64,000 bases of DNA, taken from contig PHBI01000012.1 of NCBI GenBank assembly GCA_002841945.1, positions 4,169 to 68,168 of the forward strand. Reading direction: 5' to 3'. The notes beneath the pieces are model-generated. The model saw only the letters and a program-made list of their open reading frames with translations. It did no database searches and was not told the DNA's origin. This stretch comes from Deltaproteobacteria bacterium HGW-Deltaproteobacteria-14 (lineage in GTDB: Bacteria > Myxococcota_A > UBA9042 > PHBI01). Both the position numbers and the translations under genes were made by a program. Below are positions 10,510-60,888 of the stretch, piece by piece (position 1 is the first letter of the stretch; the number at the start of each line of letters is the position of its first letter).

Positions 10510-10512
10510 GCC

Positions 10513-11820: not shown

Positions 11821-11825
11821 GGATT

Positions 11826-12611: not shown

Positions 12612-12642
12612 GGCGGGGCCCATTGGGGGCCGCGGAGACCGG

Positions 12643-19957: not shown

Positions 19958-19965
19958 GGCGGCAA

Positions 19966-19989: not shown

Positions 19990-20126
19990 CAAGCGGCGTC
20001 TTCGTGACGCCTCGCGGGCGCCCCAAAGACAAAGGGCCGGCACTGGAGTGTGCCGGCCCTCTGTGAGGCTCCGAGGAGCCGCTGCGGACTCCGGTCCGCG
20101 CCCTGCCGTTTCAGGTCAGCGGCGCG

Positions 20127-21939: not shown

Positions 21940-22260
21940 GGGTTGAAAATTCCTCCTCTCAGGGGGCGAGGCGGCTCGTCCGTCATACCGGGACGGGGCG
22001 ACGTGCCCCATCGTAACGTGACCTCCGGCTTGGTCGCGGGGACGACCACATCGCTGCCGGGATCGGGGCGCATTATTCGCGACGACAACGCTGGAATCAA
22101 GATTGCCGGGCCGATCCGCCCCCAAAGCGTGACGTAGCGGCGAGTCACGCCCGCGGCCGGGCCGTAACCTGCTGTTTCTAAAGCATAGCGAAAGGTGGTG
22201 CCGCGGGTCGCCGCGCGACCCATCGGGTGCGCTCGGGGGGGTGACGTCGCTCGCCGTGAC

Positions 22261-27659: not shown

Positions 27660-27745
27660 GGACGCGTTACCGTAACGCGGCCCTCTGCGAAACGCCACAG
27701 GAACGTGAATCATGCCTGCGTTACGCCGGGCTGTAACTCACGTTT
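27660..27745. promoter_or_regulatory. Divergent promoter region with GTTAC/GTAAC palindromes, candidate operator(s).
   Basis: GCGTTAC-C-GTAACGC (7-bp arms) near 27665-27680. A second pair GCGTTAC-gccgggct-GTAACTC at about 27715-27740. TCATGCGC is directly repeated twice. Lies between the divergent starts at 27571(-) and 27828(+). Confidence 0.4.
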
Positions 27746-27827
27746 CATGCGCGCTATCATGCGCCGCGGTGCCTGCGGGGGGACCCCGAGGGCCCGTGGC
27801 GTGAGCCAGAGACGCTGGGAGCGAGCG

Positions 27828-29636
<1,809 letters not shown>

Positions 29637-36524: not shown

Positions 36525-40094
<3,570 letters not shown>

Positions 40095-40246: not shown

Positions 40247-42913
40247 ATGCGCTCGTCTCTCGTCGCCGTGTGCCCGCTCGTCCTCCTCCTCGTCGCGGCC
40301 GGCTGCGGTGACGACACGGTCGCGTCCCCTGACGGGGCCGGCGGCGACACGACCGTCACCTCGGACACCGCCATGGAGGAGGGCGACGGGGCGGTGGCCA
40401 CCGACACCCACGACGTGCTGGTGACGACCTGCCTCGCCCCCGAGGGCGCCGACCCGAGCGGGACCGATGTGCTGACCGACGACCTCGGCGAGGCCACCGT
40501 CAACGTCGCCGATCGCGACGCCTGCCACCGCACCTACACCCTGACCTCGACCGCGACCCGCCGCGACGACCTGCCGGCGTCTCCGCGGTCGGTCGTCGAG
40601 GAGGCGGGCTACCCGACCCTGCGCAGCGGCAACGACCTGCTCGACGCCCTGCACGCCCTCGCGCTCGCCGAGGCGCGCGAGAACATGGTCGACACCATCA
40701 CCGACGGCGCCTTCTCGCAGGGCGGCGCGACCTCCTGCGGCGACGGCGGCTGCTTCGAGACCGGGCGCAAGTGGACTTATGTCTGGACCCGCGACACCGC
40801 CTTCGCGGTCGATCTCGGGCTGGCCGCCGTCGATCCCGCCCGGGCGGCGAACTCGCTCCGCTTCAAGCTCTCCGCGCGGCGCTCGGGCGGCGACGTGCAG
40901 ATCGTGCAGGACACGGGCTCGGGCGGGAGCTACCCGGTCTCGAGCGATCGCGTCGCCTGGGCGCTCGGCGCCTGGACGCTGCTGCAGCAGCTCGACGGCG
41001 CGGCGCGCACGAGCTTCGGCGACGACGCCCGGGCGGCGATCACGAACACCCTCGAGCACGATCGCGCCGTCGTCTTCGACGTGGCGACCGGCCTCTACCG
41101 CGGCGAGACGTCGTTTCTCGACTGGCGCCAGCAGACCTACCCCGGCTGGACCGAGCTCGACGTCACCGACATCGCCACCAGCGCCGCGCTGAGCACCAAC
41201 GTGCTGCACCTGCGCGCCCTCGAGATCGCCGCCGCGCTGCACGCCGAGGCCGGCGACGACACCGCCGCCGCCCGCTACAGCGGCTGGGCGGACGCCCTGC
41301 GGACGGCCATCCACGACCGCCTCTGGGTCGAGTCCGACGGGCTCTTCGCGAGCTTCCTGCCCAGCACCCTCGATCCGGCGCCGGTCCACCGCTACGACCT
41401 GCTCGGCGAGGCCCTCGCGGTGCTCGCCGGCGTCGCCAGCCCCGACGAGGCGCGCCGCGTCCTCGCCGCCTACCCGAGCTACGGCCCCGGGACGCCGGTC
41501 ATCTGGCCGCAGCAGCAGAACATCTCCATCTATCACAACCGCGCCGAGTGGCCCTTCGTCGACGCCTACTGGCTGCGCGCCGCCGCGGTCGCCAAGAGCG
41601 ACGGCGTCGCCGACAAGATGGTGGCCGCGCTCGTGCGCGGCGCGGCGCTCAACCTGTCGAACATGGAGAACCTCGAGGCCTGGACCGGCGCCCCCTACGT
41701 CGAGGACGGGCTCTACTCGGGGCCGGTCGTGAACTCCCAGCGCCAGCTGTGGTCGGTCGGCGCCTTCCTCTCCATGGTGCACCGCACGCTGTTTGGCCTC
41801 GAGCCGACCCCGGAGGGCCTGAAGATCGCGCCCTACGTCACCCACGGCATGCGGCGGACGTGGTTCGCGGGCAGCGACGAGCTAGTGCTCAACGACTTCG
41901 CCTACCGCGGGCGCCGGGTGACCGTGGTGGTGAGCCTGCCGCCGCCGTCTGGGGCGTCGGCCGGCGGCTCGTACCGCGTTGCACAGGTGCGCCTCGACGG
42001 GCAGCTCGTCACCGAGCCGGTGATCGCGCCCGCGCGCCTCGCCGTGTCGAACCGGGTCGACGTCGCCCTCGAGGAGGACCCCGAGGCGGTCCCCACGACC
42101 GCGCGGGAGGTCGACGGGGCCGCCTGGCAGCAGGTCTTCGGGCCGCGGACCCCGCAGCTCAAGAGCGTCAGCGCCGTCGGCGACCGGCTCTCCCTCGAGC
42201 TCGGCCTCGGCGGCGAGGACCCGGCCGGGCTCCTGCTCCACGTCTATCGGGACGGCGTGCCGGTCGCGAGCGGGCTCCCCGCGACGACCAGCAGCTGGAC
42301 CGATCCCGACTCCGATCCAGCGGCGCCGACCTCGCCGTGCTACGCGGTCGAGGCGTCGTTCACCGCCAGCGGCAACCGCTCGCAGCACTCCCGCCCCGTC
42401 TGCTGGTGGGGGAGCTCCAACGCCGCGATCCAGACCGTCGACGCCGGGGCCTTCGAGGCGGTCGGGGGCGAGGCCGTCACGCAGTACGGGCGCTTCCACT
42501 ACCAGGAGTGGGGTGACGAGGGGGACACGCTGACGGCGCGCGGCTTGCACCCCGCGCGCACCGGGCCGGCGTGGCTCCAGGTGCGCTTCGGCAACGGCGC
42601 TGGGCCGATCAACACCGGCATCACCTGCGCGGTGAAGCGGGTGACGGTGTTCGACGAGGCGAGCGGCGACGAGGTGGGGGGCGGCGTGCTGGTGATGCCG
42701 CAGCTCGGCACCTGGGAGCGGTGGTCCTTGTCGACCTTCGTGCCGGTGACCCTGGACGCGGCGAAGAGCTACCGCGTCGTCATCTCCGGCGACGCGCGGA
42801 CGGTGAACATGTCGTTCTTCTCGCACTTCGCGCACTACAACGGCGGGACCGGCGGCAGCGACGGCCCGTTCGACCGCGTGAACATCGCCGAGCTGCGGAT
42901 CCTGGCCCGCTGA
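40247..42913 (+). CDS. (alpha/alpha)6-barrel glycoside hydrolase lipoprotein, GH15/GH63-like (glucoamylase / glucodextranase / debranching type), with a C-terminal beta-sandwich carbohydrate-binding-like domain.
   Basis: Lipobox LLLVAAGCGDD. KWTYVWTRDTAFAVDL resembles the GH15 YTWTRDS region. 888 aa. The C-terminal approximately 200 aa (...VTVFDEASGDEVGGGVLVMPQLGTWERWS...) look like a CBM-like beta-sandwich. Confidence 0.7.
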   Translation: MRSSLVAVCPLVLLLVAAGCGDDTVASPDGAGGDTTVTSDTAMEEGDGAVATDTHDVLVTTCLAPEGADPSGTDVLTDDLGEATVNVADRDACHRTYTLTSTATRRDDLPASPRSVVEEAGYPTLRSGNDLLDALHALALAEARENMVDTITDGAFSQGGATSCGDGGCFETGRKWTYVWTRDTAFAVDLGLAAVDPARAANSLRFKLSARRSGGDVQIVQDTGSGGSYPVSSDRVAWALGAWTLLQQLDGAARTSFGDDARAAITNTLEHDRAVVFDVATGLYRGETSFLDWRQQTYPGWTELDVTDIATSAALSTNVLHLRALEIAAALHAEAGDDTAAARYSGWADALRTAIHDRLWVESDGLFASFLPSTLDPAPVHRYDLLGEALAVLAGVASPDEARRVLAAYPSYGPGTPVIWPQQQNISIYHNRAEWPFVDAYWLRAAAVAKSDGVADKMVAALVRGAALNLSNMENLEAWTGAPYVEDGLYSGPVVNSQRQLWSVGAFLSMVHRTLFGLEPTPEGLKIAPYVTHGMRRTWFAGSDELVLNDFAYRGRRVTVVVSLPPPSGASAGGSYRVAQVRLDGQLVTEPVIAPARLAVSNRVDVALEEDPEAVPTTAREVDGAAWQQVFGPRTPQLKSVSAVGDRLSLELGLGGEDPAGLLLHVYRDGVPVASGLPATTSSWTDPDSDPAAPTSPCYAVEASFTASGNRSQHSRPVCWWGSSNAAIQTVDAGAFEAVGGEAVTQYGRFHYQEWGDEGDTLTARGLHPARTGPAWLQVRFGNGAGPINTGITCAVKRVTVFDEASGDEVGGGVLVMPQLGTWERWSLSTFVPVTLDAAKSYRVVISGDARTVNMSFFSHFAHYNGGTGGSDGPFDRVNIAELRILAR

Positions 42914-46260: not shown

Positions 46261-48060
46261 CTATCGCAGGGCGACGAAGGCGAAGCCCCGCGCCCCGAGG
46301 GGGGGCACGGTGATGGCGCCCGCGCGCGTGGCGAAGGGGCCGGTGACGCCCTCCGAGAACAAGAGCCTCGGGACGCCGGTCACCGGCGCGTCGAAGGCCT
46401 CGCTGGGCTCGCGGTCGAGGTTCACGACGACCAACACCCGCTCCCCGGCCGCCTCGCGGACGAAGGCCACGCTGCCCTTGCCGCCGGTGACCTCGAGCCG
46501 CCGCTGGGTCCCCCAGCGCAGCGCCGGGTGGGCGTGTCGCAGCGCAATAAGACGGCGGTAGAGGCTCAGCAGTGAGCCCTCGTCCTTGAGTTGCGATGCA
46601 ACATCGACGACGCCGGCCTCGTCCGGGACGGCGAACCACGGGGTGCCGGTCGTGAAGCCCACCCCCGGGGTCTCCTTGGTCCAGCGCATCGGCGTGCGCT
46701 TGTTCTCGTCCGCGCCGCTCTCGCCGCCCTGCATCCCGATCTCCTCGCCGTAGTACATGAAGGGCGTCCCCTCCCAGGCCATCAGCAGCGCCGCGGCGAG
46801 GCGCATCCCGGCGGCGTCCCCGTCGAGCTGCCGCATCACCCGGGGCATGTCGTGGTTGGTCAAAAACGGCGCCTCGAAGCCCGGATCCGCGGCGAAGACG
46901 GTGGCCGCCTTGTCGAGCATCTGGTTGAGGTCGGAGCGCACGCCGTCCTTCACCGCCGCGCGGATCTTGTCCGCGGTGTTGAAGGAGAAGCCGAGGTGAA
47001 ACTCGTCACCGTCGCCGTAGTAGAGCACCTGGTCCTCGGCGCCGCTCCACGCCTCGGCGACGATCACGGCGTCCGGGTGCTCGGCGTCGAGCACCTTGCG
47101 AAAGCGCTTCAAGAACGGGTGGTTACCCTCGAAGTCCGCGACCTTGCCCTCGGGCCCCTCGAAGAGGTGGCGCACGGCGTCGACCCGGAACCCGTCCTGC
47201 CCGCGGTCGAGCCAGAAGCGCGCCGCGTGCATCATCGCGTCCTCGACCTCGGAGTCGCCGAGGTTCAGGTCGGGCATCTCGCTCCAGAAGATCGCGTAGT
47301 AGTACCAGTCGCCGAGCTGGTGCCAGACGGGCGACCCGTCCCACGGTCGCTTCCACCCCTTGGGCGGCGTCTTGACCCAGCTGTAGAACGCGCGCTTGGC
47401 CGCGTCCGGGCCCGCCTTGGCGTCGAGGAACCACGGGTGCTGGCTCGAGCTGTGGTTGAGCACGAAGTCGGTGATGATCCGGATCCCGCGCTGATGCGCG
47501 GCGGCGATGAGCTTGTCGTAGGTGGCGAGGGTCCCGTAGTCGGGGTTGATCCCCTCGTAGTCCGTCACGTCGTAGCCGTGGTAGCTCGGCGACGGGTTGA
47601 TGGGCATCAGCCACAGCGCGTCCACGCCGAGGTCGTTGCCGCCGCTCGGGTCGCCGTCGTTGAGGTAGTCGAGCTTGTCGATGAGCCCCTGGAGGTCGCC
47701 CTTTCCGTCGCCGTCGGAGTCCGCGAAGCTGCGCACGAAGATCTCGTAGAACACCGCCCCGCGCCACCACGGTTGGGCCGGCGGCGCGGCGGTCGCGGTC
47801 GTGTCGGCCGGCTCGAGGGCGAGCGCCGCGTCCGCGACGGCCACGGCCGGCGTCGCCGCGTCGGCCTCCGGGGCGGGCGCGACGGTCTCGAGGGCGGGGG
47901 CCGCGGTCGCCTCGGGCGGCGGCGTCCGGACCGGCGGCTTGTCGCCTTCGCTCTTGCATGAAGAAGTGGCGAATAGGGTGGCGATGGCGAGTGCAGAAGC
48001 CGTTATTGCGCGATTCGCAACTGCGACATGGTCGCGCGTCGTGCCACGAGCAGCGTTCAT
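46261..48060 (-). CDS. GH13 alpha-amylase-family lipoprotein of the alpha-glucosidase / cyclomaltodextrinase / oligo-1,6-glucosidase type.
   Basis: Start trimmed to ATG 48060 with RBS GGAGGA. Signal ...AITASALAIATLFATSSC. GH13 regions WRGAVFYEIFVRSFADSDGDGKGDLQG, YHGYDVTDY, IRIITDFVLNHSS and GFRVDAVRHL. Its stop lies 2 bp from the stop of the convergent surface-protein gene. Confidence 0.85.
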   Translation of the reverse strand: MNAARGTTRDHVAVANRAITASALAIATLFATSSCKSEGDKPPVRTPPPEATAAPALETVAPAPEADAATPAVAVADAALALEPADTTATAAPPAQPWWRGAVFYEIFVRSFADSDGDGKGDLQGLIDKLDYLNDGDPSGGNDLGVDALWLMPINPSPSYHGYDVTDYEGINPDYGTLATYDKLIAAAHQRGIRIITDFVLNHSSSQHPWFLDAKAGPDAAKRAFYSWVKTPPKGWKRPWDGSPVWHQLGDWYYYAIFWSEMPDLNLGDSEVEDAMMHAARFWLDRGQDGFRVDAVRHLFEGPEGKVADFEGNHPFLKRFRKVLDAEHPDAVIVAEAWSGAEDQVLYYGDGDEFHLGFSFNTADKIRAAVKDGVRSDLNQMLDKAATVFAADPGFEAPFLTNHDMPRVMRQLDGDAAGMRLAAALLMAWEGTPFMYYGEEIGMQGGESGADENKRTPMRWTKETPGVGFTTGTPWFAVPDEAGVVDVASQLKDEGSLLSLYRRLIALRHAHPALRWGTQRRLEVTGGKGSVAFVREAAGERVLVVVNLDREPSEAFDAPVTGVPRLLFSEGVTGPFATRAGAITVPPLGARGFAFVALR

Positions 48061-48209
48061 GGGTCCTCCGGTGCGCGGGGCTCCCGTCCAACGCCAGCTA
48101 CTCGTTGCGGCGGCGGCCCGACGACGGCATGGTGTCGCGAGGTTGGGCGGGACGCAACCGATCTCCACGCGGCGGGTCGCGTCGAGGGAACCCTGGTCGG
48201 AGGCTGACG

Positions 48210-49850: not shown

Positions 49851-50480
49851 TCAGTCGAGGTACAGGCCGCCGGTCGACTCGAGCCAGTCGGCGATCTCGT
49901 CGGCGGCCTGGGCGGGGTCGAGGTCGGAGACGTCGAGCTCGAGGTGGTCGAGCAGCGAGGCGCGGACGACATCGCGCAGGCGCTCCTGCTCGGCGATGAA
50001 GTAGCCGATGTCGTCGTACTGAGCCGGGTTGCCGCTGACCTTCAGGCGCTGCGTCCGGGCGGCCTCGAAGGTCTCGGGTCGGCGGGTCAGGAGCACGACG
50101 CGGAAGTTCAGGGCGCGCAGGCGCCGCTCGAGGTCGGTGAAGTCGTACTCGACGCCGTGGGTGTGGTGCTGGAACGCCTTCGCCGAGAGGTGGAAGCGGT
50201 CGATGATCCACGAGTAGTAGCGCTGCAGCTCGAAGAGCCGCGCCCAGGTGGCGTAGGCCTCCATCGCGCGGAACGCCTCGTCGGGCGCGAAGTTGATGAG
50301 CCCGCGCCCCCAGGGGTGGTTCGTGAAGCCACACCACTCGCCGCTGATGATCGGCGAGTGATAGCGGTACTTGCGCGGGCCCACGATCCGCGGGTGCTCG
50401 TTGAGCGCGAAGGCCGTGTCCGTCTTGAAGGTCAGGCGTGTGCCTTCGAGGATCACCTTCGGGACGAGCTTCCGACCCAT
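49851..50480 (-). CDS. Hypothetical cytoplasmic protein at the tail of the mal-like operon.
   Basis: 209-aa ORF with protein-like composition. Lies 4 bp downstream of the membrane-protein gene. Weak resemblance to sulfotransferase-like proteins, not supported by motifs. Confidence 0.55.
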   Translation of the reverse strand: MGRKLVPKVILEGTRLTFKTDTAFALNEHPRIVGPRKYRYHSPIISGEWCGFTNHPWGRGLINFAPDEAFRAMEAYATWARLFELQRYYSWIIDRFHLSAKAFQHHTHGVEYDFTDLERRLRALNFRVVLLTRRPETFEAARTQRLKVSGNPAQYDDIGYFIAEQERLRDVVRASLLDHLELDVSDLDPAQAADEIADWLESTGGLYLD

Positions 50481-50484
50481 GGCG

Positions 50485-51066
50485 TCAGCTCGCCGCCGCC
50501 GGTCGGGCCGGGGTCCAGCCCGACTCGCGGCGCAAGGTGTCGAAGGTCATGAGCTGCGCGACGTAGCCGACCGCGTAGGCGGCGACCACGAGGACGTCGA
50601 CGTGGCCCGCGATCATCGTCAGCAGCGCCAGCAGCGCGGCGCCACCCCACACGGCGGCGGTGACGACGTGGTGCCGCTCGCGCTCCTCGGTGCGGAGCAG
50701 GCCCCAGGCGCCGAACACGCCGGCGAGCAGGACCATGAACAGCAGGACGTCGACGGCGGTCGTCGCGGCGCTCGCGTCCCCGAAGTTGGGGCGGACCGAG
50801 GCGTAGATCCAGGTCGCCATGAGCGGCCCGAGGAGGACCGACCAGGCGCCGATGAGCGCGCGGAGCGAGCCGTCGGGGGCGGCGTGGTTGAGCACCACCC
50901 CGGCCGCGATGGGCAGCCCACACACCAAGATGATCGGCAGCGGGGCGGAGGGGCCGCTCCCGAGCGCGACCACGCCGAGGAAGAGGCCGTAGGCCGCGAG
51001 CGCGCCGAGCTGCCCCACGAGCAGCATGACGACCTCGGGGACGTTGCCCTGGAGTCGCGCCTTCAT
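50485..51066 (-). CDS. Integral membrane protein with 4-5 transmembrane helices. Hypothetical.
   Basis: 193 aa with multiple hydrophobic helices (LLVGQLGALAAYGLFLGVVALG, LPIILVCGLPIAAGVVL, VDVLLFMVLLAGVFGAWGLL, ...). Lies 21 bp after malG. Confidence 0.6.
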   Translation of the reverse strand: MKARLQGNVPEVVMLLVGQLGALAAYGLFLGVVALGSGPSAPLPIILVCGLPIAAGVVLNHAAPDGSLRALIGAWSVLLGPLMATWIYASVRPNFGDASAATTAVDVLLFMVLLAGVFGAWGLLRTEERERHHVVTAAVWGGAALLALLTMIAGHVDVLVVAAYAVGYVAQLMTFDTLRRESGWTPARPAAAS

Positions 51067-51087: not shown

Positions 51088-51951
51088 TCACCCCTTTACG
51101 CCGCCGGAGGTGAGGCCGCCGACGAGGTTCTTTTGCAGTGCGAAGAAGAGCGCCATGATCGGGATCGAGACGATGATGGACGCCGCGGCGAACTTGCCCC
51201 ACTCGACCGACTGCTCGCCGACGTAGCTGTAGACGGTCACCGGGAGGGTGAACGCCGTGGGCTCTTCCATGAACGTGAAGGCGAGGACGAACTCGTTCCA
51301 CGCGGTCATGAACGAGAACAGCGCCGTGACGGCGACGGCCGGCATCGAGAGCGGCAGGATGATACGCCAGAAGATGGTGAACTGGCTGGCGCCGTCCATG
51401 ATGGCGCTCTCCTCGAGGTCCTTCGGGATGGTGTCGAAGTAGCCCTTGAGCATCCAGACGCAGAACGGGATGGCGATCGTGGCGTAGACGACGACGAGGC
51501 CGAAGGAGGCGTTGAGGAGGCCGAGGGCCTCGAGGATGAGGTAGAGCGGCACCATCATCAGCACGCCGGGGAACATCTGGCTGACGAGGAAGGCCATGAG
51601 GCCCGCCTTGCGCCCCGGGAAGCGGAAGCGGCTGAAGGCGTAGGCGGCGGTGGTCGCCAAGAAGATGCCGAGCACCGTCGTGGCGATGGCGATGACCGCG
51701 GAGTTCAGCAGCTGGCGGCCGAAGAGCCAGTCGCCCTGGGCGCTGGTGTTGGTGACGACGGCCACGAAGTTGTCGAGGCTGAGCTCGCGCGGGATCGGGT
51801 TGAGCGACGGGCTCATGCCGGAGTCGCCCGGCGAGAACGCGATGCGCATCACGATGAGGAGCGGATACATCGTGACCAGGGTCACGGCTCCGAGGACGCC
51901 GTGGGTCGCGATGCTGCCCCAGGGGCTCCTGCGAGTGGTCGCGGTGCTCAT
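51088..51951 (-). CDS. malG: Maltose/maltodextrin-type sugar ABC transporter permease, MalG-like.
   Basis: The 603-aa track ORF is trimmed to the ATG at 51951, which gives MSTATTRRSPW.... EAA loop DLEESAIMDGAS. Six TM segments. ATGA overlap with the malF-like stop. Confidence 0.9.
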   Translation of the reverse strand: MSTATTRRSPWGSIATHGVLGAVTLVTMYPLLIVMRIAFSPGDSGMSPSLNPIPRELSLDNFVAVVTNTSAQGDWLFGRQLLNSAVIAIATTVLGIFLATTAAYAFSRFRFPGRKAGLMAFLVSQMFPGVLMMVPLYLILEALGLLNASFGLVVVYATIAIPFCVWMLKGYFDTIPKDLEESAIMDGASQFTIFWRIILPLSMPAVAVTALFSFMTAWNEFVLAFTFMEEPTAFTLPVTVYSYVGEQSVEWGKFAAASIIVSIPIMALFFALQKNLVGGLTSGGVKG

Positions 51952-53630
51952 TCGAAGGCCCCCTCGGTCGCCCTGGTGATTCGATTCTGCATCCAGCCGT
52001 ATATCAGCAGCATCACGAAGATGAGCAGCGAGTAGGCGGCTGCCAGACCGAAGCGGTTGAGGACCTTGAAGGCGTAGTAGGCCTCGGTGATCAGGATGTT
52101 GGTCTCGTTCTCGGGGGCGCCGCCGCTCACGAGGTAGATGACGTTGAACATGTTGAACGTCCAGACGACGCCCAGGATGACCGCGGGGATGAGGGCCGGC
52201 TTCAGCAGCGGCAGGGTGACCGTGCGGAAGCGCTGCCAGCGGCCGGCGCCGTCGATGTCGGCGGCCTCGTAGAGCTCCTTCGGGATGGACTGGAGCGCGC
52301 CGAGGGTGACCACCATCATGAACGGGAAGCCGAGCCAGGCGTTGGTCGTCAGGTTCGCCATGAAGTTCGAGGCGAAGCTCGAGCCGGGGCCGATCCAGTT
52401 GACCTGGTCGACGCCGATCACGTCGAGGAGCGAGTTCACCGCGCCGTACTGCTGGTTGAACATCGACTTCCAGATGAGCGCCGTGATGTAGTTCGGGACC
52501 GCCCACGGGATGATGAGCAGCACCCGGTAGAGCGTCTTGAGCCGGAGCTTCGGGCGGTTCAACACCAGCGCCAGGGCGACGCCGATGGAGACGTGGAGGA
52601 GGACGTTGAGGACCGTCCACAGGATGGTGACCGACGTCGTCCAGTAGAAGTTCGGGTGGGTCGTGGCGCTCGGGTTCAGGATCTCCTGGAAGTTCCCGAG
52701 CCCGGTGAAGTCGCCGTCCTTCGAGAAGAAGGCGATGGCGACGCCCATGGCGAAGGGGATGAAGACGAGCACGATCATCCCGAGCATCGCCGGGACGACG
52801 TAGACGTAGGTGCGCGGCTGCTCGCGGACCCCGCGGAAGACGCTCGCCATGCCCGAGATGGACGCCGCCCCGAGGGCGAAGCCGACCAGACCCGGCCACG
52901 CGACGAGCGCGCTCTCCTGGCCGAGGAAGGTCAGCGCGATCGGGATCGCCGCCGCCGCGCCGTGGGCCAGGCGGCGCCGGCCGCCGGTGAGGTAGGAGGC
53001 CGCGACGCCGAGCAGCGCCGCGAGCGCGAGCATGAGCAGGAGCTGCGACGTCGGGGTGCTGGGGGCGGGGTTGGGCACGCGCACGATCACGTGCGCTATG
53101 CCCTCGAAATTGCCGTCCTTGGCGACCTGGGCGGTCGCGGAGAAGGCGTTGTCGGTGTCGCTCAGCTTGACGACGCTGAAGCGACGGTCCTTCGGGATGG
53201 GCTGGTGCTTGGAGAAGTAGTCCTGAAGCTCCGCCGACCGGTTGAGCAGCCCCTGGGCGACGACCTCGGGATCGGCGTTGACGACGCCGGCGTCGATCAC
53301 GCGCTTGCCGGCGACCTCGGAGCCGACGGCGATGCCGAAGTCATCGGTCCCGCCGCTGGTCACGACGTAAGCAGCCGCGACGCCGTCGGGGAGCTGCTCG
53401 ACGGCGCTCGGACCGGCGGCGGCGACGCGAGCGGCGAGGTCGTCGGCGAGCGCGCCGACCCTCGTCTCGACGGCGCGTCGGTGGTCCCGTGCGTCGTTGT
53501 AGCGGGTCAGCCCGAGGACCGATCCGGCGACGACCACGACGATCAGGGCGGTCGCCAGCCCGTCGGAGACGCGCGCGTAGGGCCTCGCCTTCGGTCCACA
53601 GTAGGGTGCTTGGCCCGCGTCGAAAGCCAT
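51948..53630 (-). CDS. malF: Maltose/maltodextrin-type sugar ABC transporter permease, MalF-like, with an N-terminal extension.
   Basis: 560 aa. BPD-transporter permease domain with an EAA-like loop (KELYEAADIDGAGRWQRFRTVTLPLL). The N-terminal approximately 260 aa carry a TM helix plus a periplasmic region. Confidence 0.9.
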   Translation of the reverse strand: MAFDAGQAPYCGPKARPYARVSDGLATALIVVVVAGSVLGLTRYNDARDHRRAVETRVGALADDLAARVAAAGPSAVEQLPDGVAAAYVVTSGGTDDFGIAVGSEVAGKRVIDAGVVNADPEVVAQGLLNRSAELQDYFSKHQPIPKDRRFSVVKLSDTDNAFSATAQVAKDGNFEGIAHVIVRVPNPAPSTPTSQLLLMLALAALLGVAASYLTGGRRRLAHGAAAAIPIALTFLGQESALVAWPGLVGFALGAASISGMASVFRGVREQPRTYVYVVPAMLGMIVLVFIPFAMGVAIAFFSKDGDFTGLGNFQEILNPSATTHPNFYWTTSVTILWTVLNVLLHVSIGVALALVLNRPKLRLKTLYRVLLIIPWAVPNYITALIWKSMFNQQYGAVNSLLDVIGVDQVNWIGPGSSFASNFMANLTTNAWLGFPFMMVVTLGALQSIPKELYEAADIDGAGRWQRFRTVTLPLLKPALIPAVILGVVWTFNMFNVIYLVSGGAPENETNILITEAYYAFKVLNRFGLAAAYSLLIFVMLLIYGWMQNRITRATEGAFE

Positions 53631-53641: not shown

Positions 53642-55021
53642 CTACTTGCCGCGCTTGGCGATGTCGTCGACCATCTTGGCCTGGGCCTTCTTCAGCTCGG
53701 CGGCGGGGTCGCGGTCGGCGACGAAGATGCCCGCCGAGATCGCGATGTCAGCCGGGGTCCACAGGAGCTGCATCTCGGGGGTCGCGTCCATCAGGACGGC
53801 GTTGCTGGCCTGCTCGAGGAAGACCTTCATGGTCGGGTCCTCGGCGGCGCCGGCCTCGAGGGTCGCCTGGTGGCAGACGGGCTGCTTGCCCTCGCGCATC
53901 CGGACGCCCGCGGAGTCAGCGCCGGCGAGGTACTTGGCGGCCTCGAGGGCGGCCTCCTTCTTCTTGGAGGTCTTGGTCACGAAGATCGCCTCGATGCCGA
54001 GCATCGGCTTCGGCACGCGGCCGTCGGCGAAGGGCGGGATGGTCGCGATGCCGTAGTCCATGCCCTCGGCGATCTCGGGGCGGAACCAGGGGCCGTTGAA
54101 GACGAAGGGCGCCTTGTGCTCGTTGAAGAGGCTCGTGACCATGAAGCCCGAGATGCCCTTCGCCACGATCTTGTCGTCCATGTGGAGCTTGCGGACGAAC
54201 TTCAGGGCGGCCAGCTGCTCGGGGGTGTCGAAGGCGGGGACGTGCGCGTCGTCGAAGATGCGCCCGCCGAAGGCGTAGATCCACATGGCGTGGAAGTAGA
54301 GCCCGCCGGCCTGGTACACGATGCCCTGGCGGTCGCCGGTGAGCAGCTCCTTGGCCTTGGCGATGAGCTCCTCCATCGTCTTCGGGGGCTCGGGGACGAG
54401 GGTCTTGTCGTAGAAGAGCACCAGCGACTTCATGGCCAGCGGGAGCCCGTAGAGGTTCTTGCGGTAGACGAGCGCCCGGACCGACTCGGGCAGGAACTGC
54501 TTGAGGGTGTCGCCCTCGATCTTGCCCGACAGGGGCTCGAGCACGCCCTGCTCGACCCAGTTGCCGATCATGTTGTGGGCGAAGATGAACAGGTCGGGAC
54601 CCTGGCCGCGCGGGACGGTGATGGTGACCTTGTCCACGAAGGGGTCGTAGGGGACCGCCTGGGAGCGGACGTGGATCTTGTTCTGCGAGGCGTTGTACTG
54701 GTCGACGACCTTGTCGAACGCGGCGGCCTCGCCGGCGCGGTAGGCGTGCCACAGGACGATCTCGACCGGCTCGCCGGCGGCGGGCGCGGGGGCGGCGGTC
54801 GCCGTGTCAGCCTCGGCCGGGGCCGGGGTGGCGGCGTCGGCCTCGGCGGCCGTCGGGGTGACGGCGTCGGCTTCGGCCTCGGCCGGGGCGGGGGTGGTGG
54901 CCGGCGGCGCGGCCGTCGCGGGAGCCGGCGGGCTGTCCTTCTCGCCGCAGCCTGCGGTCAGCAGCAGCGCGGCGCCGAGAGCGGCGAGGTGGAAGAGGTG
55001 GCTCTGGTGGCGCTCAAGCAT
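53642..55021 (-). CDS. malE: Maltose/maltodextrin-binding protein, MalE-family solute-binding lipoprotein.
   Basis: Lipobox [10 protein letters not shown] plus a Pro/Ala-rich linker. [33 protein letters not shown] and [19 protein letters not shown] match the MalE family. Overlaps the malK end by 8 nt. Confidence 0.9.
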
Positions 55022-56135
55022 TGGACTCCCCCTGAATGGCGCGGGTGAGGTTGACGCCGCTGGCGTCGAAGACGTGGACGCGGTGGGGCTCGACGCCGAC
55101 CCGCAGGGTGTCGCCGACGCTGGCCAGCAGGTCGCCCGGGAGGCGGACGACCAGGATGGTGTCAGCGTCGACGCGGGTGTGCGCGAAGGTCTCCGACCCC
55201 ATGTGCTCGGTGTGGGTGATCTCGCCGGTGGCGACGACCGGCTCGCCGTCGGCGGCGGCGTGGACCTGCTGCGGGCGCAGACCGAGGGTGACCTCGGCGC
55301 CGCTCGCGTCGGCGCAGGCCGCCGCGTGGGCGGCCGGGAGGACCAGGTTGCAGCCGTGCCCTTCGAATGCGAGGCCGTCGCGGTGGGGGACCAGCCGGCC
55401 GGGGACGAAGTTCATCGCCGGGCTGCCGATGAAGCCCGCGACGAAGCGGTTCTTCGGCTGGCGGTAGACCTCCATCGGGGCGCCGTACTGCTGCAGGTAG
55501 CCCATCGACATGACCGCGATGCGGTCGGCCAGCGTCATCGCCTCGACCTGGTCGTGGGTGACGTAGACCATCGTCGTCCGCAGGCTGCGGTGGAGCGCGG
55601 CGATCTGGACACGCATCTGCACGCGCAGCTTGGCGTCGAGGTTCGACAGCGGCTCGTCGAAGAGGAAGACCGACGGCTGGCGCACGATGGCGCGACCCAT
55701 CGCGACGCGCTGCCGCTGCCCGCCCGAGAGCGCCTTCGGCTTGCGGGCGAGGTACTCGGTCAGCCCGAGCATCTCCGCCGCCGCGTCGACGCGCTTGGCG
55801 ATCTCGACCTTCGGCATCTTCCGCAGCTTCAGCCCGAACGCCATGTTCTCGGCGACGGTCATGTGCGGATAGAGCGCATAGCTCTGGAAGACCATGGCGA
55901 TGTCGCGGTCGCGCGGAGGCACGTCGTTGACGACGCGACCTCCGATGCTCAGCGAACCCGCCGTGATCTCCTCGAGGCCGGCGATCATGCGCAGCGTGGT
56001 GGACTTTCCGCACCCGGAGGGCCCGACCAGGACGACGAACTCGCCGTCGTCGATGGTCAGATCGACCTCGTTCACGGCCGCTTCCTTGGCGCCCGGGTAC
56101 GTCTTCGTGACTCTGTTTAGGACTACTTCGGCCAT
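55014..56135 (-). CDS. malK: Sugar ABC transporter ATP-binding protein, MalK/UgpC-like.
   Basis: Walker [13 protein letters not shown] signature [15 protein letters not shown]. Walker [13 protein letters not shown]-loop VYVTHDQ. C-terminal regulatory/TOBE-like domain. Confidence 0.9.
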
Positions 56136-56331
56136 GACCGCGCCATCCTGACACAGTCCCCAGGGGCGGGGAAGGGGACCGGGGCGGAGATCACGGAGAT
56201 CTCGGCGGTTCAGCCAGCCCTACGGCGCAAAGTGTGCGCTGGTGCGGCTCACCGGCCGAACGCGCTGCGTCGCAATTCCACGACAATCAGGACCCACGGG
56301 GTCCGCTTTCCGCGCGGCCCGGGATCAGATT

Positions 56332-56353
56332 CGTAACTTCAATCTGAGTTACG
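56332..56353. promoter_or_regulatory. Palindromic candidate operator CGTAACT-TCAATCTG-AGTTACG about 200 bp upstream of malK.
   Basis: 7-bp inverted arms (GTAAC...GTTAC with 10-nt spacing), flanked by the interleaved CAGATT/AATCTG inverted repeat. Lies in a lower-GC stretch of the cotH-like/malK intergenic region. Confidence 0.45.
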
Positions 56354-56424
56354 GAGGCGAGGATCCGCACCACGACTGCGTTGTCGGCGATGGGGCGCGG
56401 TCGCCCACCGGCCCGGGGGCCGGT

Positions 56425-57957
56425 TCACGGCGGCGGCGCCCACTCGAGGTCGAGCTGCTCGGCGACCGAGGCGCGCTTGGTCGCGAAGTACCAGGCGGCC
56501 TGGCCGTCGTCCTCCATGAGGTCCCCCTCGCCGGTGTCGTTGGCGAGGAAGGGGGCGTAGAGCGTCGCCTGGGCGGCGTAGGTGGCGGCGTAGTCGGCGT
56601 AGTCGAAGAGGCCGTCGTCGGGGGCCACGAGCGCGGCGAGGATGGCGTCGTAGCGGGCGCGGAGGGCCGGGACCGCGAGCACGCGGTCGGCGAGGGGGTG
56701 GGTCGTGTGCGGGTCCCCCCAGGCGGCGTTCAGGTTCTTCCAGCGATGGACGTCGGCGGTAGCGATGCCCTCGTAGGTCCACTCGGGGGTGGGCTCCCAG
56801 CCGCCGCCAAAGCCGTGGTCGTAGTCGTAGGGGACGAGCTCGGCGAGGCCGCCGGCGCGGTCGAAGTAGAGGTAGTAGTTGTTGCCCATGGCCCAGTAGT
56901 CGTCCGGCATCCCGATGAGGACGTTCATGGCGAGCCAGCGCAAGAAGCGCTCGACGTCGAAGGTGGCGGCGAGGTCGGCGGCCAGCGGCGGCCCCTCTTC
57001 GTCGTGGAGCAGCGCGATGAAGGCGCGGAGCGCAGCGTGGTCGGAGGTCTCTTCGTTGGTCTGCAGGTCGTACGCGGGGCGGTAGTTGCGGGTCCAGTCC
57101 TTGACGCCGATCGCCCGCGGGTCCGTGACCGGCTCGAGGGTGGCGGGGCCGTAGCCCTGCCAGAGGCATTTGTAGAGGTCGCCGTCGTTGCCGGCCGAGC
57201 CCCGGCGCTTGGCGAGGAAGCCCTTGTCGACCTCCTCGATGGCCGTGTAGAGGCCGAAGTAGACCGGGGTCCCGCCGATCTCGAGGGTCAGGGCGACCGG
57301 GGCCGTGAGCGGCGCGGCGACGCCGGCGCGCCGGAACAGCTCGTACGCGTAGAGCTCGCGGATCAGCGACGGATCGTCGTCGTTGTTCCACTTCAGGTTG
57401 AGCGCGCGCACGGTGCGAAAGCGCCGGTCGGAGCGCTCCGCGGCCGCCGGCGAGGCGGGTTCGAGGTCGAAGGTCGTGTTGAAGCGGAGCTTGAAGTGGG
57501 CCTTGTGGTACGCGCCGGCGGGATCCTGAGGGACGACGCGGGTCGTGTTGCCGCGGGTGCGGAAGCCGACGTCGCTGATGACCTCCTCGGTGCCGTCGGC
57601 GGCCGTGAAGACGAAGTCCGCGTGGTGGTAGCGGCCGCTGCGCATGAGTCCGTCGATGGCGGCGTAGTCCAGCATGTCGGCGACCAGGCCGTCCCACGCC
57701 TGCTGGGTCATGCGCACGGTGATCGGCTGCACGCGGTCGTGGCGGAAGAAGTCGAAGAAGTGCGCGTCCGCGGTGATGGGCACGGGGGTGAAGGTGACCG
57801 GGGAGGGCCCGACGTCCGCGACGTCTGGGGCCGCCACGTCGGCGGTGTCGAGGACGCGCGTGTCGCTGGCGCTCGTCGCGTCGCCCGCCGGCCGCGGGTC
57901 GTCGCCGCAGCTGCTCGTCGCGCCCAGCAGCGCGAAGGCGAGGGCGAGGCCGCGCAT
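56425..57957 (-). CDS. CotH-family (atypical kinase-fold) lipoprotein.
   Basis: Start trimmed to ATG 57957. Signal MRGLALAFALLGATSSCGDDPRP plus a D/T/A linker. CotH-like motifs LYTAIEEVDKGFLAKRRG and DDYWAMGNNYYLYFD. Confidence 0.65.
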   Translation of the reverse strand: MRGLALAFALLGATSSCGDDPRPAGDATSASDTRVLDTADVAAPDVADVGPSPVTFTPVPITADAHFFDFFRHDRVQPITVRMTQQAWDGLVADMLDYAAIDGLMRSGRYHHADFVFTAADGTEEVISDVGFRTRGNTTRVVPQDPAGAYHKAHFKLRFNTTFDLEPASPAAAERSDRRFRTVRALNLKWNNDDDPSLIRELYAYELFRRAGVAAPLTAPVALTLEIGGTPVYFGLYTAIEEVDKGFLAKRRGSAGNDGDLYKCLWQGYGPATLEPVTDPRAIGVKDWTRNYRPAYDLQTNEETSDHAALRAFIALLHDEEGPPLAADLAATFDVERFLRWLAMNVLIGMPDDYWAMGNNYYLYFDRAGGLAELVPYDYDHGFGGGWEPTPEWTYEGIATADVHRWKNLNAAWGDPHTTHPLADRVLAVPALRARYDAILAALVAPDDGLFDYADYAATYAAQATLYAPFLANDTGEGDLMEDDGQAAWYFATKRASVAEQLDLEWAPPP

Positions 57958-58115
57958 GCGCGGTCCGCCACGGTTACGGCTCTCCCGACGGCGTGCGCGC
58001 ATCTCGAACCTCCAGCGCGCGAGTGTACCAAAGCTAGCTCGGCGCCGTCCGGGACTCTTCCTGCGCCGGGCGGTCGTGTCTAATGTCCGCCGGTGCGCCA
58101 GCGACGGAGGCCAGC

Positions 58116-58562
58116 ATGGGGGTGGTGGATGCGGTGAAGCGGGGTCTCAAGGGGGCGCTCGACGCGGTCACGGGGCACGCCGCGGTGGTGGACGTGACGT
58201 GGCTCGGGGTCGCGGCGCCAGGGGCGCGGGTGGCGGTGCGCGCGACGGTCACCTCGACCGGCGGCGCGGTGGCGGCCGCGGGGCTGATGGTCGATCTCCA
58301 CGGCGAGGACGACCTCGACGAGGGCCTGCTCGACAAGGCGGCGGAGCTGCTCCCGGGGCGCGCGGACCCCGAGTACAGCTTCGAGATCGTCGGCCCGTTC
58401 GAGCTCACGCCGCACCAGTGCAAGACCTTCGAGGGGGAGTTCGCCTTCCCCGCCGACATGGACGCGAGCCGCACCTGGCTGCTCCGCGCGCGGGTGGCGA
58501 TGCCCGGGCACGATCCGCACAGCGCCTTCGCGATCGTCGCGCCCGCCGGGATGGTCGGTTAG
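58116..58562 (+). CDS. Small hypothetical protein.
   Basis: ATG at 58116 preceded by GGAGG. 148 aa. No recognised motif. Protein-like composition. Confidence 0.5.
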   Translation: MGVVDAVKRGLKGALDAVTGHAAVVDVTWLGVAAPGARVAVRATVTSTGGAVAAAGLMVDLHGEDDLDEGLLDKAAELLPGRADPEYSFEIVGPFELTPHQCKTFEGEFAFPADMDASRTWLLRARVAMPGHDPHSAFAIVAPAGMVG

Positions 58563-58641
58563 GGGGCGGGGACCGCGTGGAGCACGCCCGGTGGGTCCGC
58601 GCGCTTCCCCTCGCCGGCGGCCTTTGGCATGGTGCGCGACC

Positions 58642-60888
58642 ATGTCCAGCCGAACCCACCTCGTCGCCCTGATCCCGCTGCTGCTCGTCGTCACCGTCGC
58701 AGAGATGCGGCCGGCCGGCGCCGCGGAGCTGACCCTCGAGCGGATCTTCGCCGACCCGCCGCTGTCGGGGCGCGCCCCGATGCAGCTCGCGCTGAGCGAG
58801 GACGGAACGGTGCTGGCGTACCTGCGGCCCAACGAGCAGGACTCCGAGATCCTGGACCTGTGGGGGCGGCGGCTGCCCGGCGGGGCGCCGGAGCGGCTCG
58901 TCGCGACGGCGGACCTGCTCGGGGCGGGGGCCGCGCAGAAGCTCACCGAGGCCGAGCGGATGGCGCTCGAGCGCAAGCGCATCTACAAGCGCGGCATCAC
59001 GTCGTTCATGTGGTGCGGCGACGGGGCGGACGCGCTGCTGTTTCCGTTCTCCGGTGACCTCTATTGGGCGCGCCTCGGCGCCGCGGGGGAGGCCCCGCAG
59101 GTGGTGCGGCTGACCCGCGACGACGACCGGCCGGAGCTGTCACCGCGGTGCTCACCGCATGGCAACAAGATCTCGTTTACGAAGGCCGGTGATGTCTACG
59201 TGCTGGATGTTGCGTCGCACAAGACGCGCCGCCTGACGCGGGGCGCGAGCGCGACGCGGAGCTTCGGCCTGGCGGAGTTCATCGCCGAAGAGGAGATGGG
59301 GCGCCACGAGGGGCTGTGGTGGTCGCCGGACGAGACCCGGGTGTTGGTGTTCGGGGTCGACGAGTCGCCGGTGAGCGTGAAGATCCGGGCGAAGATCTTC
59401 GCGGACCGGACGGAGCTGGTCGAGCAGCGCTACCCGGCCGCCGGGGAGGCGAACGCGCGGGTGACGGCGCAGGTGATCGACGTGCGCACCGGGCGGCGCA
59501 CGGCGCTGAAGACGCCGACCGAGGACGGCTATCTGCCGCGGGCCGGGTTCTTCCGCGACGGGACGCCGTGGCTGCAGTGGCAGAGCCGGGACCAGAAGCG
59601 GCTCGTGCTGTACGAGGCCGACCGTCGCGGCGCGCTGCGTCAGGTGCTCGAGGAGCGCGACGAGGCGTGGGTCGAGCTGCACGACGATCTGGTGGGGCTG
59701 CCGGACGGGCGCCTGCTGTGGTCGAGCGAGGCGAGCGGGCGGCGGCAGCTGGAGCTCGTCGAGCGCGCGAGCGGAGCGCGGGTCCAGCTCACGGCCGAGC
59801 CCGAGGCGGTCGAGGGGGTGGTCGGGGTCGATCGCGCCGCCGGGGTCGTCTACTACACGGTCGCGGCGGATCGCGGACGGCAGCGGCAGGTCCACGCGGT
59901 GCCGCTGGCGGGGGGCGCGGCGCGCGCGGTGACGAGCGAGTCGGGGTGGCATCAGCCGACCTTCGCGCGGTCCGGGACGCGCTTCATCGACGTCGCGTCG
60001 GCTTGGGGGCGGCCCGCGAAGACGACGCTGCGGTCGGCGGACGGGCGCGAGACGATCGCGCTCGACGACAACCCGACCCCCGAGCTGGCGAGCTTCCCGG
60101 CGCCCGCGCCCGAGTGGCGAGACTTCCGCGCCGACGATGGCACGGTGTTGAACGGGCTGCTGCTGGCGCCGCTGGGGCGGGAGCCGGGGCGGCGCTACCC
60201 GGTGATCACCTGGATCTACGGCGGGCCGACCTACCAGATGGTCGCGAACCGTTGGACCCGGGCGTACCCGCTGTTTCTGTGGCTCACGGCGCACGGATAC
60301 GGGGTGCTGCTCGTCGACAACCGGGGGACGGGGGGGCGCGATCGGGCCATCGACCGGGCGCACTATCGGCGCTTCGGCGACGTCGAGGTGCGGGATCTGT
60401 TCGGCGCGGTGCGCGAGGTGGCCGGGGTCGACTGGGTGGACCCGGCGCGGATCGGCGTGTGGGGGTGGAGCTACGGCGGGTACCTGTCGGCGCGGGCGGT
60501 GCTCGACGCGCACACGCCGTTCGCGGCGGCGTTCGCGGCGGCGCCGGTGACCGACTGGACGCTGTACGACACCCACTACACCGAGCGCTATCTGGGGATG
60601 CCAGACGGCGGCAAGGCCGAGGCGTACACGCGGGCGAACCTGGTGAGCCGCGCCGGGCTGCTGGCGCGGCCGCTGCTGATCATCCACGGCACCGCCGACG
60701 ACAACGTGCTGTTCGACAACACCTTGCAGCTGGTGCAGGCCCTCGAGGACGCGAGCCTGCCCTTCGAGCTGATGATCTATCCGGGCAAGGCGCACGGCGT
60801 TTCGGGACGGGCGGCGCAGCTGCACGTGTACAAGATGGCGTTCGGCTTCTTCGACCGGACGCTGCGGGCCGCGCCGCCGGGCCCTTGA
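58642..60888 (+). CDS. S9-family serine peptidase of the dipeptidyl-peptidase IV / prolyl oligopeptidase type: N-terminal beta-propeller plus C-terminal alpha/beta hydrolase.
   Basis: Start trimmed to ATG 58642. Signal MSSRTHLVALIPLLLVVTVAEMRPAGA. DPP-IV-like N-terminal region. Catalytic-Ser motif GVWGWSYGGYLS. Catalytic region LLIIHGTADDNV...GKAHG. Confidence 0.85.
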   Translation: MSSRTHLVALIPLLLVVTVAEMRPAGAAELTLERIFADPPLSGRAPMQLALSEDGTVLAYLRPNEQDSEILDLWGRRLPGGAPERLVATADLLGAGAAQKLTEAERMALERKRIYKRGITSFMWCGDGADALLFPFSGDLYWARLGAAGEAPQVVRLTRDDDRPELSPRCSPHGNKISFTKAGDVYVLDVASHKTRRLTRGASATRSFGLAEFIAEEEMGRHEGLWWSPDETRVLVFGVDESPVSVKIRAKIFADRTELVEQRYPAAGEANARVTAQVIDVRTGRRTALKTPTEDGYLPRAGFFRDGTPWLQWQSRDQKRLVLYEADRRGALRQVLEERDEAWVELHDDLVGLPDGRLLWSSEASGRRQLELVERASGARVQLTAEPEAVEGVVGVDRAAGVVYYTVAADRGRQRQVHAVPLAGGAARAVTSESGWHQPTFARSGTRFIDVASAWGRPAKTTLRSADGRETIALDDNPTPELASFPAPAPEWRDFRADDGTVLNGLLLAPLGREPGRRYPVITWIYGGPTYQMVANRWTRAYPLFLWLTAHGYGVLLVDNRGTGGRDRAIDRAHYRRFGDVEVRDLFGAVREVAGVDWVDPARIGVWGWSYGGYLSARAVLDAHTPFAAAFAAAPVTDWTLYDTHYTERYLGMPDGGKAEAYTRANLVSRAGLLARPLLIIHGTADDNVLFDNTLQLVQALEDASLPFELMIYPGKAHGVSGRAAQLHVYKMAFGFFDRTLRAAPPGP

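Follow-up and report, generated by a model that had tools for sequence, protein, structure and literature searches.

A predicted CotH-family lipoprotein beside the mal genes of a Myxococcota alpha-glucan locus, with relatives beside starch-handling genes in several phyla

We analyzed a stretch of 64,000 nucleotides (nt) from Deltaproteobacteria bacterium HGW-Deltaproteobacteria-14 (Myxococcota_A; assembly GCA_002841945.1, contig PHBI01000012.1, positions 4,169 to 68,168), referred to below as the window, which carries a gene for a CotH-family atypical kinase beside the genes of a maltose-type transporter. A preliminary description had placed this cotH gene about 290 bp upstream of malK-malE-malF-malG on the same strand. 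That position is borne out, with the mal genes identified by Pfam: cotH lies upstream on the same strand, with 289 nt between its stop at 56425 and the start of malK at 56135. The 35 kb to the left of the mal genes form a large alpha-glucan locus with three glycoside hydrolase family 13 (GH13) genes, one GH57 gene, a pullulanase gene and several genes for proteins with a Glucodextran_C domain. Upstream of cotH, and divergent from it, are an open reading frame (ORF) of 159 amino acids (aa) and a gene for a DPP-IV/S9 peptidase. The features of cotH, of the spacer and of the transporter genes are as follows.

56425-58002 (stop codon included), reverse strand: cotH-family gene, 525 aa (ORF, codon-position GC content, Pfam CotH, AlphaFold 2 model with Foldseek)
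58009-58027, reverse strand: Shine-Dalgarno sequence GGAGG (58009-58013) and -10-like TACACT (58022-58027), read from the sequence, with putative promoter function
57907-58002, reverse strand: signal peptide with lipobox ATSSC, Cys32 predicted to be lipidated (Arg-rich n-region, hydrophobic LALAFALLGA, lipobox-pattern match)
57817-57906, reverse strand: acidic tether rich in Asp, Thr, Ala and Pro, residues 33 to 62, starting GDDPRP (predicted local distance difference test [pLDDT] score below 50; motif common to six lipoproteins of the locus)
56443-57816, reverse strand: CotH kinase-like fold, residues 63 to 520 (AlphaFold 2 model; template-modeling [TM] score of 0.80, normalized by target, to Bacillus cereus CotH)
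56878-56904, reverse strand: equivalent of the catalytic loop, D367-D368-Y-W-A-M-G-N374-N375 (profile alignment to B. cereus CotH)
56818-56826, reverse strand: equivalent of the metal-binding motif, D393-Y-D395 (D393 aligned with B. cereus D247)
56136-56424, reverse strand: cotH-malK spacer, conserved and belonging to the malK operon as its leader or regulatory region (79% column identity with the related loci L005 and L009)
55014-56135, reverse strand: malK-type ATP-binding cassette (ABC) ATPase (ABC_tran, OB_MalK and TOBE_2)
53642-55021, reverse strand: MalE-like solute-binding lipoprotein (SBP_bac_1; best NCBIfam match MalE, below its cut-off; lipobox LTAGC)
51948-53630, reverse strand: malF-type permease (BPD_transp_1)
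51088-51960, reverse strand: malG-type permease (BPD_transp_1)

The GC content of the cotH ORF at the three codon positions (0.70, 0.49 and 0.96) is typical for real genes in this window of about 71% GC. The gene most likely spans 56425-58002. The end at 57957 that had been given earlier corresponds to an internal methionine, Met16; the start at 58002 is favored because a GGAGG Shine-Dalgarno sequence (58009-58013) precedes this ATG at the proper distance, because the sequence GGAGGT is kept upstream of cotH in the two closest relatives (L005 and L009) and because Met16 is missing from an orthologue with 89% identity. The mature protein is identical with either start.

Membership of the CotH family, as originally claimed, is confirmed by Pfam, in which PF08757 matches residues 148 to 487 with 144.2 bits (E = 8.6e-42; gathering cut-off, 23.8); an NCBIfam scan gave no matching model for the protein. 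There is also a sequence-level match to 5JD9, the structure of B. cereus CotH (E = 1.2e-8). With 28 sequences as input, AlphaFold 2 gave a confident model (pLDDT, 87.4; predicted TM score, 0.85), and a Foldseek search with this model places 5JD9 and 5JDA far in front (E = 1.5e-17; TM score of 0.80, normalized by target), with HipA, Fam20C and PI3K ranked after them. The subfamily signature motifs GFRTRGNTTR, NDGxLYKCLW, PDDYWAMGNNYYLY and PYDYD are present in the window protein and are invariant or nearly so.

Two aspartates have been tested in Bacillus subtilis CotH, of which the D228Q and D251A mutants are inactive (PMC7821199). These residues would correspond to D224 and D247 of the B. cereus protein through an inferred +4 numbering offset, obtained by counting along the 5JD9 alignment. 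A single-sequence alignment sets B. cereus D224 opposite a tryptophan, two residues past a pair of aspartates; the subfamily profile alignment equates D367 with D224, N375 with N229 and D393 with D247, and places a three-residue insertion before N375 in the catalytic loop of the window protein relative to Bacillus CotH. D367, N375 and D393 are invariant in 28 homologues of 35 to 89% identity. Among 128 distant family members, aligned as 50%-cluster representatives, D367, N375 and E256 stand at 100%, D393, D395 and K278 at 97 to 98% (D393 at 97%), and R148, G151, N152, R155 and E216 at 90% or more; the window protein has every one of these residues. Both aspartates required for activity in B. 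subtilis are thus retained, as D367 and D393. The idea that the catalytic residues are all substituted was rejected on the profile alignment and on conservation in the 128 representatives. A catalytically dead binding module, which the preliminary description had entertained, is disfavored because D367, N375, D393 and all other family-wide invariant polar residues are kept. We put forward, as a tentative possibility, that the window protein, as a member of the CotH family of Fam20-like atypical kinases, is an active phosphotransferase.

The N terminus of the protein reads MRARRRESRNRGGPRMRG-LALAFALLG-ATSS-C32, that is, an n-region, a hydrophobic region and a lipobox ending in cysteine, the lipobox being called by a match to a regular expression for the lipobox pattern. 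A cysteine is present at the place equivalent to Cys32 in most CotH homologues, and an identical ATSSC lipobox is found in the product of a GH13 gene of the locus (46261-48168). The sequence after Cys32 is GDDPRPAGDATSASDTRVLDTADVAAPDVADVG, and residues 31 to 62 are disordered in the AlphaFold model (pLDDT below 50). A lipobox and an Asp/Thr linker common to CotH and the glucan-active lipoproteins had been noted previously, and our comparison of N termini agrees: a motif C-G-D/G-D-(P/A)-(K/R)-P followed by Asp/Thr repeats (e.g., DTADTADTADTADT) is found in CotH and in six lipoproteins of the starch locus, four of which are GH13, GH57 or pullulanase enzymes. These six, assigned by the motif after the lipobox, are as follows.

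15984-18686: GH13 lipoprotein
20164-22125: lipoprotein of 653 aa, unassigned
27705-29636: GH13 lipoprotein
29695-33132: lipoprotein with GH57 and a family 20 carbohydrate-binding module (CBM20)
36525-40094: pullulanase lipoprotein
40247-42913: lipoprotein, unassigned

The MalE-like protein differs, with CGEKDS after its lipobox and an Ala/Pro-rich linker in place of the CGDD/DT tether. Such Asp/Thr linkers belong to this Myxococcota lineage, in contrast to the alpha-glucan link of CotH described below, which spans phyla. The CGDD/DT motif may be a signal for sorting or surface exposure, analogous to the lipoprotein export signal of Bacteroidetes. A Lol-like set for lipoprotein handling (7640-12611, forward strand), consisting of an ABC ATPase, two FtsX-type permeases and a LolA_like protein, adjoins the starch locus.

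A whole-database search gave 196 relatives of the window protein, from Myxococcota, Spirochaetota, Bacillota and other groups, of which the best 120 were examined. At an E value of 1e-3 or below, 4051 cluster representatives came out of an exhaustive search (227 at 1e-30 or below), and a scan of species-representative genomes gave 80 loci, which were annotated by ORF clustering, phmmer (on stop-to-stop ORFs) and Pfam. In the two closest relatives, L005 (78% identity) and L009 (89%), the gene order is kept: peptidase, small ORF, cotH, malKEFG, a 192-aa gene and a 209-aa gene. L009 also has a DUF2264 glycoside-hydrolase-like gene (11599-12921, forward strand), not in the window, that overlaps the cotH stop and precedes the malK leader. 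In L010, a Myxococcota locus with 55% identity, cotH is divergent from malK-malE-malF-malG, the start codons lying 108 nt apart, and a pullulanase gene is found 6 kb off. A Myxococcota relative with 59% identity has a GH13 amylase gene 1.3 kb upstream of cotH. Outside the Myxococcota, three Bacteroidales loci (L041, L051 and L076) hold cotH within a polysaccharide utilization locus (PUL) for starch, in the order LacI, HAD, GH65, CotH, GH13 with CBM48 and a type IX secretion system (T9SS) tail, SusC and SusD. Directly upstream of cotH in L041 is a gene (3830-9766, forward strand) for a 1979-aa protein of tandem CBM20 repeats with a T9SS sorting tail, in which a CBM48-type profile finds about 17 repeats and Pfam CBM_20 scores 278 bits. 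The Clostridiales locus L033 has, on one strand, GH65, a solute-binding protein, MalF-like, MalG-like, CotH, VTC and DUF4956 genes, and in a gammaproteobacterial locus (L068) a gene for a MalE-like binding protein is immediately upstream of that for CotH. Overall, about 11 to 13 of the 80 species-level loci have an alpha-glucan link, in at least five architectures and four or five phyla, and the linked gene is usually the immediate neighbor of cotH. The chance of adjacency to alpha-glucan genes was put at a few percent per locus, an estimate made with no random-gene control.

The link extends to the protein itself in some relatives. The C terminus of many longer homologues is formed by a module about 100 aa long (signature, VIFRY...IRGSFNxW...YKFyy...W..DPaNP), to which Pfam gives weak scores for AMPK1_CBM, CBM_48, CBM53 or X25. 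A profile of the module matches the glycogen-binding domain of AMPK beta (E = 4.7e-7) and an amylase CBM (E = 1.7e-7), as well as glucoamylase CBM20, pullulanase and GlgB. This CBM48/AMPK-type module is present in 14 of the best 120 of the 196 homologues (about 12%) and in 4 of the 80 species-level loci. In a rough neighbor-joining tree, the Myxococcota clade lies next to Bacteroidales, gammaproteobacterial and CBM-fused spirochaete clades. Synteny alone as the cause of the adjacency to mal genes was rejected because the starch link recurs in rearranged and unrelated architectures. Since relatives in several other phyla lie beside starch-handling genes, the gene neighborhoods suggest that this CotH subfamily probably has a role in starch use.

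The commonest partner of these genes, in 18 of the 80 loci, is a gene for a VTC-domain protein (polyphosphate-polymerase fold), for a DUF4956 membrane protein or for both. In two spirochaete loci a CBM48 fusion is accompanied by DUF4956, and in the Clostridiales locus L033 the VTC/DUF4956 pair occurs together with GH65 and the sugar ABC transporter. A comparable set is formed by SIR_1592-1594 of Streptococcus intermedius, in which we take SIR_1592 to be equivalent to DUF4956. This CotH/VTC/DUF4956 cassette is an accessory of Gram-positive Pel loci, and mutants of the CotH-like SIR_1594 and of the transmembrane ACT-domain gene SIR_1592 have altered Pel levels and less Pel-dependent aggregation (PMC12345266; bioRxiv 10.1101/768473). 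The cassette is also found in the Clostridium perfringens pathogenicity locus NELoc-2 (PMC2879425). A different synteny is seen in the Acholeplasmatales, namely a beta-propeller protein, a small protein, CotH and a DUF5698/DUF2179 membrane protein. DUF5698/DUF2179 recurs as a neighbor of CotH in 17 Acholeplasmatales loci (L052-L090) and in the spirochaete locus L091 (7002-7589), and its layout, a membrane domain with a small cytoplasmic domain, loosely recalls that of DUF4956.

The preliminary description had tied cotH to the mal genes, and here the adjacency on the same strand stands, but a shared mal transcript is doubtful, as malK has a conserved leader of its own. This leader of about 260 nt shows 79% column identity with L005 and L009, the proteins of which differ by 11 to 22%. 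In L009 the leader lies between the inserted DUF2264 gene and malK and not after cotH; the spacer can be assigned to malK because it stays with malK when a gene is inserted after cotH. Hence, judging from this arrangement, cotH is probably not part of the mal transcript, and it seems to have a promoter region of its own, with the conserved Shine-Dalgarno sequence and the -10-like TACACT. Immediately past the cotH stop the spacer has a GC hairpin, and it also holds a conserved ribosome-binding region and an AT-rich inverted repeat; hairpins of the leader are GTAACTC...GTTAC, with one compensatory change, and GGACCC-CGT-GGGTCC. The region may be a structured leader, or else it may act as an operator. 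An Rfam scan of 55900-58700 for riboswitches and leaders gave no match, and an RNAalifold analysis of the leader drew on three sequences, too few to judge. A scan of the same interval for consensus promoters and terminators gave nothing, such a scan being uninformative at 71% GC. The idea of an operator that the malK leader has in common with further promoters in the window was rejected, as the 30-nt AT-rich inverted repeat occurs only once. The divergent arrangement in L010, with its shared spacer of 108 nt, would allow co-regulation of cotH and malK.

Several other genes of the window stand near these. The 159-aa ORF upstream of cotH (58083-58562, forward strand), which has no family match, is kept beside cotH in L005 and L009, where it has 142 to 143 aa. 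After malG, genes for a membrane protein of 193 aa and a soluble protein of 209 aa (49851-51066, reverse strand) hold the same position in L005 and L009; Pfam and NCBIfam gave no family for either, and an NCBIfam scan of the unannotated neighbors of 159, 193, 209 and 613 aa likewise gave none. A second kinase-like gene of the starch locus (18740-20032, reverse strand) encodes a 430-aa protein with a Kdo/WaaP-family kinase domain and DUF4032, for which no signal peptide was noted. Three genes on the reverse strand (20164-22125, 23304-24824 and 24818-26734), for two "choice-of-anchor X" lipoproteins and a family-less 638-aa protein with a signal peptide, sit between genes for Glucodextran_C-domain proteins and may encode a surface starch-binding or porin-like set.

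We propose, as a tentative reading, that the window protein is a lipid-anchored phosphotransferase of a conserved extracytoplasmic subfamily that serves as an accessory of alpha-glucan capture and uptake, with glucan or maltodextrin as the acceptor. The protein would be exported, lipidated at Cys32 and held on its acidic tether of about 30 residues. It would be targeted to whichever membrane face the GH13, GH57 and pullulanase lipoproteins occupy, probably the cell surface, because its tether matches theirs and because MalE, which is necessarily periplasmic, does not have the CGDD/DT tether. There it would bind a phosphate donor and a divalent metal via D367...N375 and D393-x-D395, and phosphate may be moved to hydroxyls of alpha-glucan chains or maltodextrins, which could open or tag the polymer ahead of hydrolysis and import by MalEFGK. 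The donor might be ATP or, in lineages with VTC/DUF4956, polyphosphate. Members of the kinase superfamily such as Fam20B, POMK and WaaP phosphorylate sugars. A glucan acceptor is ranked first because of these sugar kinases, of the starch-binding fusions and of the embedding in PULs, the products of which normally act on a glycan; a kinase of surface proteins, a function unrelated to starch and a noncatalytic scaffold follow in that order. A more far-reaching version, which we regard as improbable, is that the members of the subfamily are alpha-glucan kinases, secreted or at the surface, and a bacterial counterpart of the plant glucan, water dikinase, with polyphosphate exported by VTC/DUF4956 as the donor where the pair is present. 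Extracytoplasmic phosphorylation of starch, glycogen or maltodextrin would then loosen or privatize the substrate. Polyphosphate as the donor is a speculation drawn from the VTC/DUF4956 association in other lineages.

A number of observations weigh against a glucan phosphotransferase. The alpha-glucan context is seen in only the roughly 11 to 13 loci mentioned above, the others having VTC/DUF4956 or the unrelated Acholeplasmatales synteny, and a Myxococcota relative with 57% identity has no starch genes nearby. The window CotH itself has no CBM, and a CBM48 on a kinase is no proof of a glucan substrate, as in AMPK it regulates a protein kinase. No phosphatase able to remove glucan phosphate was recognized in the locus, and VTC and DUF4956 are absent from the 64-kb window, as judged with profiles from related loci applied to all of its ORFs. 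With a conserved leader belonging to malK, co-regulation of cotH and the mal genes is possible at most, and enzymatic activity across the subfamily is presumed from conserved residues. ATP is scarce outside the cytoplasm, which makes the donor the main weakness of any kinase model. Finally, the characterized CotH enzymes are all Ser/Thr protein kinases, which phosphorylate repeat regions at multiple sites (PMC7821199).

This last point leads to a rather doubtful alternative, in which the protein is an extracytoplasmic kinase acting on Ser/Thr of co-localized envelope proteins, as Bacillus CotH acts on the Ser-rich repeats of CotB and CotG. The candidate sites would be the Asp/Thr-rich tethers of the amylolytic lipoproteins, exemplified by the repeat quoted above, and phosphorylation would change their charge, extension or assembly. 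The intact catalytic residues are as much in its favor as the activity of the characterized enzymes, and Thr-rich acidic linkers are at hand on six neighboring lipoproteins and on CotH itself; AMPK also provides an example of a CBM48 that targets or regulates a protein kinase. However, these linkers are limited to the Myxococcota lineage, whereas the alpha-glucan link is cross-phylum, and the problem of the phosphate donor is the same as for a glucan kinase. Moreover, we know of no protein kinase encoded in a PUL. In favor of a protein kinase, control by protein phosphorylation has been suggested for the Pel-locus CotH (bioRxiv 10.1101/768473). A second alternative is a general envelope or phosphate/polyphosphate role, as in the CotH-VTC-DUF4956 cassette, with the mal adjacency reflecting an inherited gene order and no coupling to starch. 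We consider such a role unlikely. It would fit the prevalence of VTC/DUF4956 neighbors and of unrelated genes in the Acholeplasmatales, the relative without starch neighbors, the apparently separate promoter region of cotH and leader of malK, and the attachment of the cassette to Pel loci and to the C. perfringens pathogenicity locus (PMC12345266; bioRxiv 10.1101/768473; PMC2879425). It would not explain why alpha-glucan genes adjoin cotH in at least five arrangements and four or five phyla, when adjacency by chance is put (by estimate and not by a computed control) at a few percent per locus, nor why starch-binding modules are fused to the kinase itself; the tether common to CotH and the amylolytic enzymes also argues for co-localization.

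In the remaining alternative the kinase fold would serve as a noncatalytic scaffold or binding protein for a nucleotide, a glycan or a partner, as proposed for cellulosomal CotH proteins and the fungal CotH invasins. The lack of ATP outside the cell and the three residues by which the catalytic loop exceeds that of Bacillus CotH would agree with this, and cellulosomal CotH proteins have been discussed as possible structural components (PMC12484212). Nevertheless, every family-wide invariant polar residue, including both aspartates essential in B. subtilis, is kept in the window protein and across the subfamily, and such conservation is hard to account for without catalysis; we therefore judge a scaffold to be very unlikely.

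Secreted CotH proteins occur widely, among other places in cellulosomes and in Pel and pathogenicity loci, and the context described here bears on their substrate and on their extracellular phosphate donor, since it points to alpha-glucan or the amylolytic proteins of the surface as concrete substrates and to ATP or polyphosphate as donors. Glucan phosphorylation, if true, would be a new step in bacterial starch utilization and a new activity for the CotH/Fam20 superfamily; if it is not, the protein would be an ordinary family member with an accessory role. A glucan kinase fed by polyphosphate would, if true, explain how extracytoplasmic CotH kinases can work without ATP. The alpha-glucan-linked CotH subfamily, with its embedding in PULs, its adjacency to mal genes and its CBM48/CBM20 fusions, is apparently new, in that we did not find it described. 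The literature searched (CotH with starch, amylase, glycogen, CBM48 or polyphosphate) gave no paper on an alpha-glucan-linked CotH, although the last of these searches did not require CotH, so that absence is unproven.

In plants, GWD and PWD (the glucan and phosphoglucan, water dikinases), together with SEX4 and laforin, are enzymes with starch-binding modules that add or remove phosphate on alpha-glucan and so make the glucan accessible. The likeness of the window protein to GWD and PWD is a functional analogy with no homology, as GWD uses a phosphohistidine mechanism like that of pyruvate, phosphate dikinase (PPDK) inside plastids. Fam20C (a protein kinase), Fam20B (a xylose kinase) and POMK are kinases of atypical fold that work outside the cytosol, with some phosphorylating glycans. 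They are, however, eukaryotic enzymes of an ATP-supplied Golgi lumen, related in sequence to the window CotH only at the superfamily level, and the Foldseek match to Fam20C (4kqb) is weak and marginal (E = 0.035; probability, 0.51).

The preliminary description had found an extracytoplasmic CotH in a starch locus unexpected. This holds for the link to alpha-glucan, for which the literature searched gave no example, but not for the association with a polysaccharide system, which has precedents in cellulosomal and Pel-locus CotH proteins (PMC12484212; PMC6083626; PMC12345266; bioRxiv 10.1101/768473). In concept, the cellulosomal proteins and the Pel-locus CotH/VTC/DUF4956 cassette come closest to the window protein. 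The cellulosomal proteins of Clostridium thermocellum (CseP/Cthe_0044 and Cthe_0239) and the dockerin-CotH proteins of anaerobic fungi are likewise secreted and recruited to a polysaccharide-degrading apparatus (PMC6083626; PMC12484212), but they are attached by dockerins and concern cellulose and hemicellulose, whereas the window protein is predicted to be lipid anchored and is associated with alpha-glucan. The CotH-VTC-DUF4956 cassette of Pel loci and NELoc-2 also ties a secreted CotH to a polysaccharide system, and members of the present subfamily stand beside VTC/DUF4956, yet the 64-kb window lacks both partners and its context is the catabolic uptake of starch and not the synthesis of an exopolysaccharide. 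With Bacillus CotH (5JD9 and 5JDA) the window protein shares PF08757, the fold, the catalytic-loop Asp and Asn and the metal-binding Asp, at 18% identity over the structural alignment. It is about 100 residues larger and has the catalytic-loop insertion; it has a lipoprotein signal and an acidic tether, whereas the Bacillus protein is located in the mother-cell cytoplasm; and its gene lies in a Gram-negative Myxococcota genome among mal and peptidase genes, with no spore-coat context and no CotB or CotG. The window protein is a true CotH-family member, but given its different compartment, context and host it is not a functional orthologue of the spore-coat kinase of Bacillus.

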